Shown here: one piece after another, positions 59,368 to 64,000 of the stretch
Numbering within the stretch: the stretch's first letter is position 1
Layout of the letters: the number at the start of each line of letters is the position of its first letter
Translations under genes and position numbers: made by a program
Notes under the pieces: model-generated
The model's input: the letters and a program-made list of their open reading frames with translations, nothing else
Told to the model about the DNA's origin: nothing
Database searches by the model: none
DNA from: Candidatus Poribacteria bacterium
Lineage (GTDB): Bacteria; Poribacteria; WGA-4E; PCPOR2b
Direction: 5' to 3'
Length of the DNA stretch: 64,000 nt
Assembly: GCA_022822785.1 (NCBI GenBank)
Contig: JAJEAL010000117.1
Span: 4,747 to 68,746, forward strand

Positions 59368-59633
59368 GTTCCTGACCTAACATATTGTGTGATGTATAAC
59401 ACCTGCATCTTATCACATTTCTACCCATTCACGCCACCCAAAATCCGAAAACCTAAATCAGGATTCGATGAAAAATCTAACGCAAGTTGCTTTGAATCCC
59501 GATCTTATCGGGGGCGCTATGACGCCAAGACATAAAGTTATTTTTCTTGGCGACTTTGTACCTTCGTGTTTTTGCGTTTTATTTGATCTGATTCTGAAAG
59601 TTCTATCATTCTGAGTATCTTTATTCAGAAAAT

Positions 59634-59661
59634 GAACTTTTATCTCTCCTGCGGTGTCATT
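59634..59661 (+). promoter_or_regulatory. Putative ECF-sigma-dependent (autoregulatory) promoter
   Basis: GAACTT (59634-59639), 16-nt spacer, GTCATT (59656-59661), ending 17 nt before the ECF sigma start; fits the generic ECF -35 AAC / -10 GTC-TC consensus. Confidence 0.6.
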
Positions 59662-59678
59662 CACAGTGAAAGTCTTTT

Positions 59679-60293
59679 ATGATGGAACAGTCAGACCAAA
59701 CCCTCATTTGCAAGATTGTGAAGCGCGATGCTGCTGCCTTTGAGATGCTTTTTGCCCGACATCGTGCGTCCGTTCGCCAGCATATCCTTAGCATCGTGCG
59801 GACTGAAAGTGCCGCTGAGGATCTGGTTCAAGAGGTGTTTTTGCGTGTCTGGACGCGCGCTGAACAGTGGAATGGTCAAGGCGAGTTCCAGGGTTGGCTT
59901 TTCCGCATCGCAACGAACCTCGCCCTCAATCATTTGCGCACCGTGCGGCGCCGGCGACAGGAACCCCTTGAACCACCGCCTGACGAATTCGACGATGAGA
60001 ATGAACGGCCGGCAGATCCAGATTGGATGATTGATACTTCGTCGCACGGTCCTGACGTGATAGTGGAGCAAACCGAGCGGTCTCAGCTGCTCTGGCAGCT
60101 TATTGATGGGCTGCCTCAAGAGAAACGAGAGGTGCTTCACCTCATATATGAGAAAGAAATGGCACTTCGAGAAGCTGCCATAGAGCTTGGCATTCCAGAA
60201 GGCACCGTGAAGTCGCGTTTACACTACTCCATAAGACATCTCGCCCGCGAATGGAAGGAAATCGCAAGCGATTGGGAAGAAGAGAAAGAGTGA
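59679..60293 (+). CDS. ECF (sigma-70 group 4) RNA polymerase sigma factor
   Basis: Region 2 AEDLVQEVFLRVW...WLFRIATNLALNHLR; region 4 LPQEKREVL...EAAIELGIPEGTVKSRLHY. Confidence 0.95.
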   Translation: MMEQSDQTLICKIVKRDAAAFEMLFARHRASVRQHILSIVRTESAAEDLVQEVFLRVWTRAEQWNGQGEFQGWLFRIATNLALNHLRTVRRRRQEPLEPPPDEFDDENERPADPDWMIDTSSHGPDVIVEQTERSQLLWQLIDGLPQEKREVLHLIYEKEMALREAAIELGIPEGTVKSRLHYSIRHLAREWKEIASDWEEEKE

Positions 60294-60318
60294 GCAGGCG
60301 GCAACGTTTTACACTTTC

Positions 60319-60484
60319 AAGACTTACGCAAATTTAGCACACAAGGGGTAGATTTTTGATTTTTAACCCCTTAAATCCCCCAACTCCCCTGACAAGGGGG
60401 GAAGATAAGAGGGATCTTCTTCCTTGTCTTTCCCCTCTTATCAGAGGGGTTCAGGGGGACTTATGAACGCGCTGCGTCTGTCCT
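60319..60484. mobile_element. Degenerate MITE (AGGACTTACGCA-type termini) containing nested long palindromes
   Basis: aagacttacgca ... tgcgtctgtcct; internal taaatccccc...gggggactta enclosing an imperfect ~30-bp inverted repeat. Confidence 0.65.
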
Positions 60485-60532
60485 AACTTTATAACTTACA
60501 CAAACGCAGTAGGAAGGAGATAGGAGGGTAGC

Positions 60533-63500
60533 ATGTCACACAACGTTACTGCATTTTGGCATAAGGAATCCTTTGAAGGATTGATGAAAGAACGGTTACC
60601 AGAACTTCTCGCTGACCGGATGCCGCTCGCCGGTTATCATTTTGAGTCAACCGATACGTACACCTGTCGAGTCAGAGTTGTAATAGCGTCAACCGGGGGC
60701 TATATTGAGGTCGAATACACTGACATTCCGCAACCTGATACAGACGGTGTGTTCATGCTCAACGGTGAATCGTATATTGTCGTGCCGACCGCTTCGACTG
60801 TGAAACTGAAACAAGCGAAGATCGAATGTGTAGGCGATCAACTGTACGACTACTTCAAAGCACGTATCAGGGAAGCACCGCCAGATCTGGCATGGAATAC
60901 GTCGCTAGTCCACTTGTGGCTTCCGATTGATAGATGGGTGCGTGAATTTTTTAGCGATACATACACCGCTCAGAAACTCGCTCAGACCAACTGGCTTGAC
61001 AAGCATTCACATCTGCGTAGGGTACGGATTTCACAAGGGAATCAGGTGTTTAGCCCTGGACACTTTGGGCGGACTTGTCCATTTGAGACGCCAGAGGGAC
61101 CCAACGTTGGCAAGATTCTAACGATTGCGAGGGGTGCAGAGATTCGTGATGGAAAATTGGTTATCGTGGATGATACTCCTGAAGCGACGCTTGGTTTATC
61201 TGCAGCGCTGATCCCTTTTCTCGAACACAACGACCCATCGCGAATACTCATGGGTGCAAACATGATGCGCCAGTGGTTATCCCCGTCTACTCCAGAGACT
61301 GCTCCGGTTAGGTGTTCCAACGAAATGTCAAGATCGGCTGCCTCTCCAGAACCTGCACTTGTCCAGACAGGTTACGAGCCCGATGTCCCCGACTTTTGGT
61401 GTGGGCGTAATCTGTTGACCGCTTTTATCTCTTGGGGCGGGGATACTTTTGAGGATGGCATCGTGATTAGCGAGTCGTGTGCCGCACGTCTAAATTTTCC
61501 CTATGCCGTTGAACCGGGCGATAAGATTAGTAACCGTCACGGAACGAAAGGGGTCATTTCACGTATCATCCCTGACGATGAGATGCCTCATCTCGCCGAT
61601 GGTACGCCGGCAGAGCTTGTTTTCAGTTTTGGTGCTTTGCATGGACGGATGAACTTTGGTCAGATCCGTGAAGCGGTCATGAGCCGCATTGCGCGGGCGG
61701 AGGGGGAAGTCGCTATTGTGCCTCCATTTCAAGCACCTAGTGCCGATCAACTTCGTGAGCGACTCCAAAAGGTAGGATTGCCTGAAGATGGGATGGAAAT
61801 CCTCACCTTTGGGTCCAACGGTAAGGAACTGGATCGGCCAAGCACGGTTGGTTGGGTGTATTGGGGGAAGACGGTTCACATCGCGCTCGATAAGCTCAAG
61901 GTTTCCGAGCCTATCGTTCATGACGAACCTATATACCATCAGGGACTTGGCGAACTGGAATACTATACACTCCGTAATGCTTCAGCATTTGAGACTTTGC
62001 GGGAACATTTCAACACCCGCGCTTCGACGCGGGTAGATGCGGGGACACTTCCCGATCGCGTTGCAGCAGGAACAGTTGAGCAGGCGGGACCACCGACGCC
62101 GATGTTTGCCAAAATCAGGGGACGACTGTCGGCAGCAGGCATCCACGCCAACTTTGATGGTGACCAGCTGACTTTCCAATTTGCGCGTCCGACTGGGGAT
62201 ACACTTCAGCTTGTCCAGCCAGTTGCCCATCCGTGGCTACATGCTCAAACCATTGATGAAGTTGGTATATGTGAAGGCATTTCCGAGTATCGTGCACTTG
62301 CCGATGTCAATACTAGAGCAGAGCGGATGTTTGCAAATGATGCACCGGAAAGTCTAACCCTTCAAGTCCTGAAGCAACTCCAAACACGTCTTGCGGAATA
62401 CTTCGACGCGCTTCTAAGTCCCGCGGACATGCGCTTTACGGCACAAACGCTTTTCAGCGGACGCAGCGTCATTGTACCAGATGCAGAGTTACGCGCCGAT
62501 CAGGTTGGCATTCCGGAGCAGATGGCATGGGCGCTTTTCGGGCCTCAGGTTACAAAAGAACTCGGTGATGCCAAAGCAGTGCGAGGACGCAGCCAAAGTG
62601 CAACACAGGCACTTGATGAACTGATGGCGCGTTCATGGGTGATTGTACATCGAGCTCCGGCGTTTACGTCTACCACCCTTCTTGCATTCCATCCGGTGCG
62701 CCAACCGGACCGCACCATCCGTGTTCACCCCTTTGTTTGTGAGTTGATGAGTGCTGACTTTGATGGGGACCAAGCGGCGGTTTTTCTGCCCATCACAGCG
62801 GGGGGGCAACGGGAAGCCGGTGAGCAGCTGTCTATCGCCGGACATCTCAAACGAGATCCAAATGTGTGCACAGCGTTAGCCCCAGGGCATGACGCGATTT
62901 GGGGGTTGGCAAGTTTGAGTCTTACCCCTGAAGGATGTGACGAACTTTCAGAAGTTGTCGGGATGGAGATTGCTATCCCTGAGGGTTTGGTCACACGGCG
63001 CTCATTGGCAGATACGCTAAAAACACTCCTCAAACGCGAAGGAATTGATCGCACCATTGAAGTTGCTGAACGGCTAATGCAGCGTGGACTCGAAATTGTA
63101 AAGGAATCGGGAGCCTCCATGAGTCCGTTCCTCAGTAGGAGCGATGGTAGTCCTTCCATTCCTACGGACTCCGAGGATGTAACAGCATGGAACGCCTACG
63201 CGGAAGAACTTATGGAGTGGATTGCTGCTTACGAAGACTTTGCTGATAACAACTTGGGATCGCACATCCTCGCGGTCAAAAGCCGCGCCTTTACGAGTAG
63301 ACTTTATCGACTCGCTTGTGTTGTTGGGGCGCGAGGAGCGGTTTCAGATATTCGAGGCGGAGATATTGTGATTCGTAACGGGTATTGTGATGGTTTAACG
63401 TCTGATGAACTCTACACGCTATCTGTCGGCTCACGGGAAGGGCTTGTTCGCCTCAACTTGGAAGTGCAACGCGTTGCGTGGGAGTTCCGAGATAGCAGCC

Positions 63501-63652
63501 AATCGAAAGGGTTTACCGTTCTGTCTCGTGCGATGCGAGCCAGACATCCCGGCATCGTTTTCGCCCGTGCCGCAGCCTGCGGTGAAGTCGATCCGCTTAC
63601 AGATATTGATAGCCGGCTTTTCGTTGGGCTGCCTGTAGCAAGAACCGAGTGA
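60533..63652 (+). CDS. Single-chain miniaturised RNA polymerase beta-beta' (RpoB-RpoC) fusion protein
   Basis: Collinear RpoB motifs (GRTCPFETPEGPNVG; LIPFLEHNDPSRILMGANMMRQ; FEDGIVISE; GDKISNRHGTKGVIS; GRMNFGQ; VGWVYWGKTVH; QGLGELE), then RpoC motifs (PVAHPW; clamp helices; FSGRSVIV; HRAP; SADFDGDQ; GSREGL; C-terminal VFARAAACGEVDPL); RBS aggagg. Confidence 0.9.
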   Translation: MSHNVTAFWHKESFEGLMKERLPELLADRMPLAGYHFESTDTYTCRVRVVIASTGGYIEVEYTDIPQPDTDGVFMLNGESYIVVPTASTVKLKQAKIECVGDQLYDYFKARIREAPPDLAWNTSLVHLWLPIDRWVREFFSDTYTAQKLAQTNWLDKHSHLRRVRISQGNQVFSPGHFGRTCPFETPEGPNVGKILTIARGAEIRDGKLVIVDDTPEATLGLSAALIPFLEHNDPSRILMGANMMRQWLSPSTPETAPVRCSNEMSRSAASPEPALVQTGYEPDVPDFWCGRNLLTAFISWGGDTFEDGIVISESCAARLNFPYAVEPGDKISNRHGTKGVISRIIPDDEMPHLADGTPAELVFSFGALHGRMNFGQIREAVMSRIARAEGEVAIVPPFQAPSADQLRERLQKVGLPEDGMEILTFGSNGKELDRPSTVGWVYWGKTVHIALDKLKVSEPIVHDEPIYHQGLGELEYYTLRNASAFETLREHFNTRASTRVDAGTLPDRVAAGTVEQAGPPTPMFAKIRGRLSAAGIHANFDGDQLTFQFARPTGDTLQLVQPVAHPWLHAQTIDEVGICEGISEYRALADVNTRAERMFANDAPESLTLQVLKQLQTRLAEYFDALLSPADMRFTAQTLFSGRSVIVPDAELRADQVGIPEQMAWALFGPQVTKELGDAKAVRGRSQSATQALDELMARSWVIVHRAPAFTSTTLLAFHPVRQPDRTIRVHPFVCELMSADFDGDQAAVFLPITAGGQREAGEQLSIAGHLKRDPNVCTALAPGHDAIWGLASLSLTPEGCDELSEVVGMEIAIPEGLVTRRSLADTLKTLLKREGIDRTIEVAERLMQRGLEIVKESGASMSPFLSRSDGSPSIPTDSEDVTAWNAYAEELMEWIAAYEDFADNNLGSHILAVKSRAFTSRLYRLACVVGARGAVSDIRGGDIVIRNGYCDGLTSDELYTLSVGSREGLVRLNLEVQRVAWEFRDSSQSKGFTVLSRAMRARHPGIVFARAAACGEVDPLTDIDSRLFVGLPVARTE

Positions 63653-63681
63653 TGCAACATGAGTTAAAAATTATGTAGGGG

Positions 63682-64000
<319 letters not shown>

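Follow-up and report, generated by a model that had tools for sequence, protein, structure and literature searches.

Does a bacterium that already carries a complete housekeeping RNA polymerase also encode a second, private transcription enzyme built from only two proteins? The question is raised by a pair of genes on the forward strand of the window (the whole 64,000-nucleotide stretch of Candidatus Poribacteria DNA analysed here, which belongs to contig C21 in an assembly of 5.6 Mb). According to the open reading frame (ORF) calls, a gene for a 204-residue sigma factor of the extracytoplasmic function (ECF) type at 59679..60293 is followed, after a gap of 239 nt and on the same strand, by a 1039-codon ORF at 60533..63652, whose product joins β-type and β′-type RNA polymerase sequence in one chain and is termed here the mini-enzyme. 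Ordinary, full-length rpoB (1475.7 bits) and rpoC (1653.5 bits) genes, both above their NCBIfam cut-offs, are located on contig C106 of the same genome, which agrees with the proposal of a first-pass annotation, made from the sequence alone, that the fused chain is a paralogue. We hold with moderate confidence that the two genes, in an operon that regulates itself, encode a single-chain RNA polymerase that depends on its sigma factor and works beside the housekeeping enzyme, for which we infer catalysis, sigma binding to the mini-enzyme and promoter recognition by the module's own sigma. The module comprises the following features, with the evidence for each in brackets.

59633..59658, + strand: promoter-like site of ECF type, TGAAC-N14-CGGTGTC (motif kept across loci; top match of a position weight matrix, PWM)
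59679..60293, + strand: dedicated ECF sigma factor gene, 204 residues, regions 2 and 4, acidic linker with P-x-W-M-I-D (Pfam, TIGR02937, alignment of 16 orthologues)
60294..60532, no strand: intergenic spacer with a dispersed hairpin repeat and the polymerase gene's ribosome-binding site (repeat copies, fold z-score)
60533..63652, + strand: gene for the single-chain miniature β-β′ fusion RNA polymerase, 1039 residues (Pfam, NCBIfam, alignments, AlphaFold2, Foldseek)
60533..62122, + strand: β-derived half, residues ~1-530 (alignments to β chains of the Protein Data Bank, PDB, and to the genome's own RpoB)
61517..61552, + strand: β-type active-site lysine motif, residues 329-340 (conservation in 61 members)
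62282..62413, + strand: helical hairpin of residues 584-627, homologue of the β′ clamp helices (AlphaFold2; hmmsearch and hhalign to the genome's own RpoC)
62750..62770, + strand: Mg-binding motif SADFDGD (family consensus NADFDGD), residues 740-746 (conservation in 61 members)
63401..63499, + strand: long helix of residues 957-989, equivalent of the bridge helix (AlphaFold2; hhalign to own RpoC)
63500..63649, + strand: family-specific C-terminal segment, residues 990-1039, with no detectable β′ counterpart (conservation in 61 members; unaligned by hhalign)

The mini-enzyme displays, from N- to C-terminus, the Pfam domains RNA_pol_Rpb2_3 (residues 148-204, E 2.7e-9), RNA_pol_Rpb2_6 (best stretch residues 326-457, E 4.8e-40) and RNA_pol_Rpb1_2 (residues 697-764, E 3.6e-18). 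This is the succession of RpoB-type and then RpoC-type blocks that the first-pass annotation had described, and its motif coordinates are all exact: FED occupies residues 306-308, GDK residues 329-331, GTKG residues 337-340, GRMN residues 371-374 and SADFDGD residues 740-746 (nucleotides 62750-62770). The derivation from bacterial rpoBC at under half the size also holds, with bacterial NCBIfam models outscoring archaeal ones (172.8 and 89.1 bits versus 110.9-136.4 and 34.9-40.5 bits). The protein remains well below the equivalog cut-offs of the housekeeping subunits (rpoB TIGR02013, 172.8 versus 801.15 bits; rpoC TIGR02386, 89.1 versus 963.5 bits) and of the full-length β-β′ fusions (NF011417, 171.3 versus 4632 bits; NF007172, 149 versus 5372 bits). 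In an alignment of 61 full-length family members, which also served for structure prediction, the lysine motif of the β-type barrel (aligned to residues 1057-1147 of Escherichia coli β) has G329, D330, R335 and G337 in every member, K331 in 56, H336 in 60, K339 in 57 and G340 in 59, while the Mg motif retains D742 in 58, D744 in 59, G745 in 60 and D746 in 58. The most conserved part of the mini-enzyme is its family-specific last 50 residues, in which P1006, A1013 and L1022 are present in 61/61 and R999, A1000, A1014 and G1032 in 60/61 members.

The AlphaFold2 (AF2) model of the mini-enzyme is compact, with a mean predicted local distance difference test (pLDDT) score of 93.3, a predicted template modelling (pTM) score of 0.90 and 892 of the 1039 residues at a pLDDT of at least 90. 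Its best Foldseek matches in the PDB are bacterial and plastid β and β′ chains (E ~1e-22), in line with the polymerase fold that the annotation had anticipated. The parts kept and lost were mapped by alignment to PDB chains, by hmmsearch against the genome's own RpoB and RpoC, and by hhalign against its own RpoC (probability 99.9%, E 7.4e-32). From β, the mini-enzyme keeps the fork/Rpb2_3 block, the LMGANMMRQ block, FED, the two-lysine barrel, GRMN, switch 3 and the C-terminus; from β′, it keeps the clamp helices (residues 584-627), the Mg-motif barrel, the helical region after this barrel and the bridge helix (residues 957-989). The clamp-helix hairpin is modelled as helices 584-601 and 606-627 and matches the clamp-helix segment of the genome's own RpoC in both hmmsearch and hhalign, and the modelled bridge helix is paired by hhalign with the corresponding region of own RpoC as far as residue 976. 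The losses include ~380 lobe residues of β and, from β′, ~286 N-terminal residues, ~25 residues at the rudder together with part of switch 2, and all sequence from the middle of the bridge helix onwards. This last deletion corresponds to own-RpoC residues 812-1436, the region with the trigger loop and the jaw. The final ~60 residues of the mini-enzyme have no hhalign counterpart in own RpoC; an interpretation of the C-terminal segment as a remnant of the first trigger helix was dropped, hhalign giving no alignment, and a likeness of residues 563-569 to the N-terminal part of β′ is not claimed, as no alignment backs it. By both barrels and the bridge helix, the mini-enzyme belongs to the two-barrel (multisubunit-type) RNA polymerase catalytic superfamily, with no trigger-loop homology found.

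Both genes are under purifying selection. Ratios of nonsynonymous to synonymous substitution rates (dN/dS, Nei-Gojobori) were 0.11-0.19 for the polymerase (15 pairs, six Poribacteria orthologues), far from the neutral values that the annotation had named as a possible refutation, and 0.09-0.28 for the sigma factor (10 pairs, five orthologues). Intact homologues with the same deletions are numerous, as the annotation's proposal required: the family forms more than 150 clusters at 50% identity, and the 120 best matches listed in a word-indexed protein search are all 990-1106 residues long at 50-100% identity, with Rpb2_6 and Rpb1_2 in all of them, Rpb2_3 in most, and the name "hypothetical protein" on nearly all. 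Of 1.84 billion representative proteins searched exhaustively, 9798 matched at E ≤ 0.001, and 539 reached E ≤ 1e-30; many are fragments, the 539 probably include housekeeping RpoB, and the best 150 each score at least 237 bits. In whole-genome counts (E ≤ 1e-100, the genome sets being samples), the family was present in 32/176 genomes of Poribacteria, the window's phylum (21/28 in family f1, 9/11 in f2, 1/8 in f8 and 0/112 in f4), in 53/151 of Latescibacterota, the phylum of locus L016, and in 2/201 of Chloroflexota, the phylum of locus L017, with the centre genome counted. With Planctomycetota and Myxococcota added, the module is spread over at least five phyla. Among individual relatives, copies with in-frame stops were observed at G054:C2:821092-824204, G015:C330:4242-6365 and G293:C156:41147-44257; the G054 gene consists of two overlapping frames near the β/β′ junction, which could reflect decay or a natural two-chain form. 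The representative library also contained a protein distinct from this family, P0263 (1948 residues), which has RpoA-type (RNA_pol_L and RNA_pol_A_bac), RpoB-type and RpoC-type domains in one chain and is an apparent α-β-β′ triple fusion of reduced size.

The gene directly upstream of, and co-oriented with, the polymerase gene is indeed an ECF sigma factor gene, as annotated, carrying Sigma70_r2 and Sigma70_r4 (Pfam) and scoring 109.9 bits against a TIGR02937 cut-off of 42.9 bits. No anti-sigma gene is conserved beside it, and the downstream gene is the polymerase. A search of species-representative genomes returned 80 loci, comprising 16 of the family and 64 housekeeping rpoBC loci, and a homologue of the window's sigma lies directly upstream on the same strand in 16/16 family loci. 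All-against-all ORF clustering of the window and the 15 full loci (L023 is cut by a contig end) revealed the sigma and polymerase genes as the only genes common to all, other shared clusters being antisense shadow ORFs inside these two genes; flanking genes, which are syntenic and metabolic, are common only among close Poribacteria. Outside Poribacteria the two genes abut or overlap. A second set, covering 1.5 kb upstream of 20 further members (chosen on long contigs from 56 places) plus locus L088, has the sigma abutting the polymerase gene in 15/21 and ~250-600 nt away in 2/21. Overall, the synteny that the annotation had proposed to examine was found in 36/37 distinct loci, the window counted and one duplicate of L018 dropped.

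Sigma orthologues are 37-56% identical across phyla, versus at most 31% (77 bits; 16 paralogues) for paralogues in the same genome, and judged by these identities the module sigma is a dedicated lineage of its own. Trees of the two proteins, each built from the 16 family loci, agree in every supported group (Poribacteria, L012+L013 and L018+L019) and display no supported conflict, the sigma tree being poorly resolved; in the polymerase tree, L017 stands apart from the other Chloroflexota, whose members are not monophyletic. Within region 2, D48, Q51 and E52 are invariant in the 16 orthologues. The linker between regions 2 and 4 is usually variable in ECF sigma factors; here, at residues ~112-125, it carries a conserved P-x-W-M-I-D...G-P-D motif, in which D119 never varies and P114 and P125 each occur in 90% or more of the 16 orthologues, and the sigma ends in an acidic W-E-E tail. 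The linker motif and the tail may provide mini-enzyme-specific contacts. In genome G242, two full modules, each with its own sigma, were observed (G242:C1:1427408-1430581 and 3368600-3371734, loci L092 and L093); their promoters differ (TGAAC-N13-TGGTGTC versus TGAAC-N14-CGGTGTC), and the modules could be two mutually orthogonal pairs.

The promoter-like site that the annotation had placed at 59634-59661 proved real, with TGAAC-N14-CGGTGTC at 59633-59658 and the sigma start codon 20 nt downstream. The same motif and spacing precede the sigma gene in 14 of the first 16 loci, the exceptions being L020, with a variant, and the truncated L023. For 17 loci of the second set the upstream region of the sigma is in view; 10 of them have the motif and 7 have one-base variants (CGGCGTC, CGGAGTC, or TGGTGTC with a spacer of N13). 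A PWM built from ten non-redundant sites was scanned over the 5.6-Mb genome, and the window's own site is the top match at 30.1 bits, followed by matches of 23.1 and 22.7 bits. To judge from these matches, the only recognisable target of the sigma would be its own operon promoter, because the next-best sites (on C17 and C36) and two other strict matches (on C72 and C90) are without exception internal to long ORFs; the in-depth regulon search covered the window's genome, and weaker promoters are possible. The -10 element lies ~11-20 nt from the sigma start codon in all phyla, the stretch concerned being 59659-59681 in the window, and because of this short distance the sigma mRNA leader must be very short or absent. 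The sigma gene has no clear ribosome-binding site, and the polymerase gene has a strong one.

Taken as a private polymerase system, the locus would be a two-gene operon in which a dedicated sigma factor of ECF type is joined by a miniaturised β-β′ fusion that is competent for catalysis. The operon would be driven by the conserved ECF-type promoter TGAAC-N14-CGGTGTC, most likely read by its own sigma and hence autoregulated, and sigma region 2 would dock on the retained clamp-helix hairpin to give a two-protein, promoter-specific, DNA-dependent RNA polymerase. In known holoenzymes, sigma factors contact the core enzyme mainly through region 2.2, which meets the clamp helices. A working polymerase is the most economical explanation because the active site is conserved, the two-barrel fold is confidently predicted and selection is purifying. 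Three observations speak for a holoenzyme of the pair: the clamp helices, best known for holding sigma region 2, have been kept despite the extensive losses, the region 2 residues are invariant, and in most phyla the genes are translationally adjacent. A complex prediction for mini-enzyme residues 1-808 and sigma residues 5-194, run with separate alignments, returned the verdict "weak support" with a score of 0.39 (runs of 0.42, 0.37 and 0.39), at least 29% of contacts agreeing between runs, a partner pLDDT of at least 62 and a best score of 0.00 among three controls. The mark set for this score is attained by 58/80 solved complexes and 2/110 mismatched pairs, and scores of 0.60 or below include only 7 of those 80 solved complexes together with both passing mismatches. 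Tentatively, the pair may be the smallest known sigma-dependent polymerase, in which a chain of ~115 kDa and a 23-kDa ECF sigma would act as an orthogonal enzyme initiating at TGAAC-N14-CGGTGTC, feeding back on its own operon and dispensing with lobes, flap, trigger loop, α and ω.

Several observations weigh against such a sigma-dependent enzyme. The β flap, the normal dock of sigma region 4, is deleted, the alignment skipping ~250 host residues between residues ~316 and 324. No trigger-loop homology was detected, hhalign ending at residue 811 of the 1436 residues of own RpoC, and catalysis may be slow or unusual because no homology to the trigger loop or beyond the bridge helix was found. There is no convincing copy of the promoter outside the operon in this genome, and in five further carrier genomes the strict matches number 1-4 per genome, their own sites included, versus 0-4 for a reversed control. 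A GAAC-type -35 element and a GTC-type -10 element ~17-18 nt apart are the ordinary geometry of ECF promoters; the module promoter has GAAC-type and GTC-type cores with the same ~17-18 nt between them, and because of this geometry the housekeeping core, with the module sigma, could fire it. Linkage is looser in one subclade, where 3/21 loci of the second set (L103, L104 and L106, in G247, G250 and G213) have the sigma 1.3-2 kb upstream with one intervening ORF, which encodes an ABC transporter (ABC_membrane and ABC_tran) in two genomes and a 381-residue protein with no significant Pfam match in the third; one of these three distant sigmas matches only over positions 65-192. Genome G327 has a mini-enzyme (locus L100, G327:C1:3661099-3664236, preceded by opposite-strand genes) and no dedicated sigma, the best match in the genome, at 90 bits, being at paralogue level. 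The complex score is a weak pass only, and since sigma-polymerase holoenzymes have already been solved, this modelled pass may express likeness rather than binding. A natural sigma-polymerase fusion was sought among 1859 longer candidates and none was found at E ≤ 1e-20, which is weak evidence. Finally, several complete genomes of the window's genus lack the polymerase gene, which is therefore dispensable.

Some of these observations fit a division of roles, in which the sigma would serve the housekeeping core alone, turning on the operon, and the mini-enzyme would be a sigma-independent polymerase that might make primers or short RNAs, form R-loops or copy RNA templates. The deletion of the flap as dock of region 4, the canonical ECF promoter geometry, the lack of a regulon beyond the operon, the one genome in which the mini-enzyme occurs without a dedicated sigma and the weak pass of the complex score all point that way. 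So do the single-chain, two-barrel enzymes YonO (PMC5467207) and QDE-1 (PMC9508822), which by their published descriptions act without a sigma factor, QDE-1 being credited with both DNA- and RNA-dependent activity (PMC9508822). We nevertheless consider this division of roles the less likely reading: the clamp-helix hairpin, whose chief known function is to hold sigma region 2, survived the loss of most other accessory elements, the gene has been accompanied by a dedicated sigma lineage in at least five phyla, and the abutting or overlapping arrangement of the two genes in most phyla is what partners produced in a fixed ratio would be expected to have. The annotation had also considered that the mini-enzyme might be a decoy, that is, a regulator in the usual position of an anti-sigma gene that sequesters the sigma on its clamp helices. 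The gene does occupy the place normally held by an anti-sigma factor, it retains the clamp helices, and the module includes no separate conserved gene for an anti-sigma factor. A purely regulatory role is nonetheless improbable given the conserved catalytic residues, as the Mg aspartates and the β lysine motif, kept in 56-61 of 61 members, would be superfluous in a decoy; in addition, ~1000 residues of polymerase fold are under purifying selection, and no regulon is evident that a switch of this kind could control.

A mobile or conflict-related origin, in which the module would be derived from, or a relic of, a phage or plasmid, or would serve anti-phage defence through takeover of transcription by an inhibitor-insensitive polymerase, would account for the patchy spread (32/176, 53/151 and 2/201 genomes of three phyla), the absence from some complete genomes of the same genus, the variable neighbourhoods outside close relatives and the lack of monophyly of the Chloroflexota members in the polymerase tree. 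Many inhibitors of bacterial RNA polymerase target the flap, the jaw, the trigger loop and the N-terminus of β′, all of which are missing here. We give this origin little credence: no family member was found among 50,697 phage records (37 matched, none over at least 80% of the query, and those listed are β/β′-type genes) or among 72,556 plasmid records, where again no match covered at least 80% of the query. PADLOC-DB 2.0 holds no family for the polymerase and one marginal match to the sigma (E 0.0037), the PHROG matches of the mini-enzyme are to generic β/β′ families only, locus ORF clustering revealed no integrase, transposase or effector gene conserved beside the module, and related Poribacteria share syntenic metabolic genes on either side of it. 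A few relatives with an in-frame stop or a split near the β/β′ junction (G054, G015 and G293) might suggest a chimera of assembly or a pseudogene in decay, but this reading is refuted. The same architecture recurs in many independent assemblies, single-contig chromosomes included, which settles the annotation's own concern about a chimera, and the 1039-codon frame is intact, with a dN/dS of ~0.15 and a confident fold; for the family, artefact or pseudogene is excluded.

The surroundings of the module are metabolic, and there are no phage genes beside it in the window flanks, as the annotation had stated. Its neighbours, on the opposite strand, encode a GFO_IDH_MocA oxidoreductase, a β-helix protein, an aldo/keto reductase, a glutamine amidotransferase and a BioD-like AAA_26 protein. 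The 239-nt spacer between the two genes has a minimum free energy of -86 kcal/mol (z-score -5.2) and contains, at 60317-60485, a G+C-rich palindromic element that forms a long hairpin and has 48 further partial copies across the genome. This repeat-bearing spacer is specific to the window's lineage, and sponge metatranscriptomes show the element in numerous contigs that are otherwise unrelated; it resembles a dispersed repeat, similar to repetitive extragenic palindromic (REP) sequences or miniature inverted-repeat transposable elements (MITEs), inserted in the operon. Matches of the palindrome to microRNA hairpins in Rfam were below threshold and were taken as an artefact of shape. Deep metatranscriptome cover at 60317-60485 derives from the dispersed repeat. 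Of three runs examined from one sponge metatranscriptome study, only run X1 yielded contigs inside both genes (153-228 nt, 0-1 differences, depth 2-3), located at 59696-59915 in the sigma gene and at 62073-62287, 63044-63250, 63343-63495 and 63518-63745 at the polymerase gene; these contigs leave most of both genes uncovered and may reflect DNA carry-over, so they are not proof of expression.

If the pair is active, both barrels, the fork, switch 3, the clamp helices and the bridge helix would constitute the natural minimum of a sigma-using bacterial-type polymerase, and flap, lobes, rudder, trigger loop, α and ω would be dispensable. Many environmental bacteria would then run a second, private transcription device, with a bearing on sigma-dependent initiation and on the evolution of multisubunit polymerases, and a compact two-protein system with a 26-nt promoter would have appeal as a tool for orthogonal expression. 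Should the sigma do no more than switch the operon on, a conserved miniature polymerase of cellular type would still be a new enzyme to explain.

The annotation's statement that no system of this architecture had been described holds in part only. The chain architecture is known from the yeast plasmid pGKL2, whereas the bacterial, chromosomal and sigma-linked form is undescribed in the literature searched; a description could exist in Iyer and Aravind (2012) or in supplementary material to the ECF reclassification, both outside that search. The nearest analogue, Orf6 of Kluyveromyces lactis pGKL2, a cytoplasmic linear plasmid, is reported as a 982-residue Rpb2::Rpb1 fusion with about half of the coding sequence deleted and with rudder and lid missing (PMC2919709, PMC6211774). 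Compared by its published description, it resembles the mini-enzyme in being one chain of ~1000 residues with a β part followed by a β′ part and large deletions, and in lacking the rudder, where the alignments of the mini-enzyme have the gap of ~25 residues. In contrast, Orf6 is described as eukaryotic and plasmid-borne, of proposed poxvirus-like origin, and as associated with a small subunit (Orf7), a capping enzyme, a helicase and an ATNTGA upstream element, whereas the mini-enzyme is bacterial, chromosomal, closest to bacterial β/β′ and accompanied by an ECF sigma and a sigma-type promoter.

Fused β-β′ chains are reported for Wolinella succinogenes and Candidatus Adlerbacteria (PMC11515920). 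The full-length fusions represented by NF011417 and NF007172 share the gene order and single chain of the mini-enzyme, although their models span ~2840-2890 positions and describe the only housekeeping enzyme of the cell, while the 1039-residue mini-enzyme coexists with rpoB and rpoC. YonO, from the Bacillus subtilis prophage SPβ, is likewise described as a ~100-kDa single chain whose active site has two barrels and in which homology to the trigger loop could not be detected; the account reports only a few catalytic residues in common with cellular enzymes and leaves open whether a specificity factor is needed (PMC5467207). It is prophage-encoded, whereas the mini-enzyme is absent from the phage records, has long blocks that align to β/β′ and is linked to a dedicated sigma. 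The polymerases of the jumbo phages phiKZ and AR9 are, by their published accounts, reduced relatives of β/β′ without homologues of α and ω, as is the mini-enzyme (PMC4666361, PMC5449584, PMC7598289); in contrast to the fused, chromosomal and sigma-linked mini-enzyme, they are described as consisting of several polypeptides, phage-encoded and not dependent on the sigma-70 family. With ordinary ECF operons, as published (PMC7826278, PMC8999054), the module shares a sigma limited to regions 2 and 4, a -35 element of the GAAC type, probable autoregulation and, directly downstream, a co-transcribed partner gene, the partner being an anti-sigma factor in those operons and a polymerase chain here, with no detectable regulon beyond the operon. 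A miniature β-β′ chain taken alone therefore has precedent, and it is the bacterial, chromosomal and sigma-linked form for which the literature searched gave no description.

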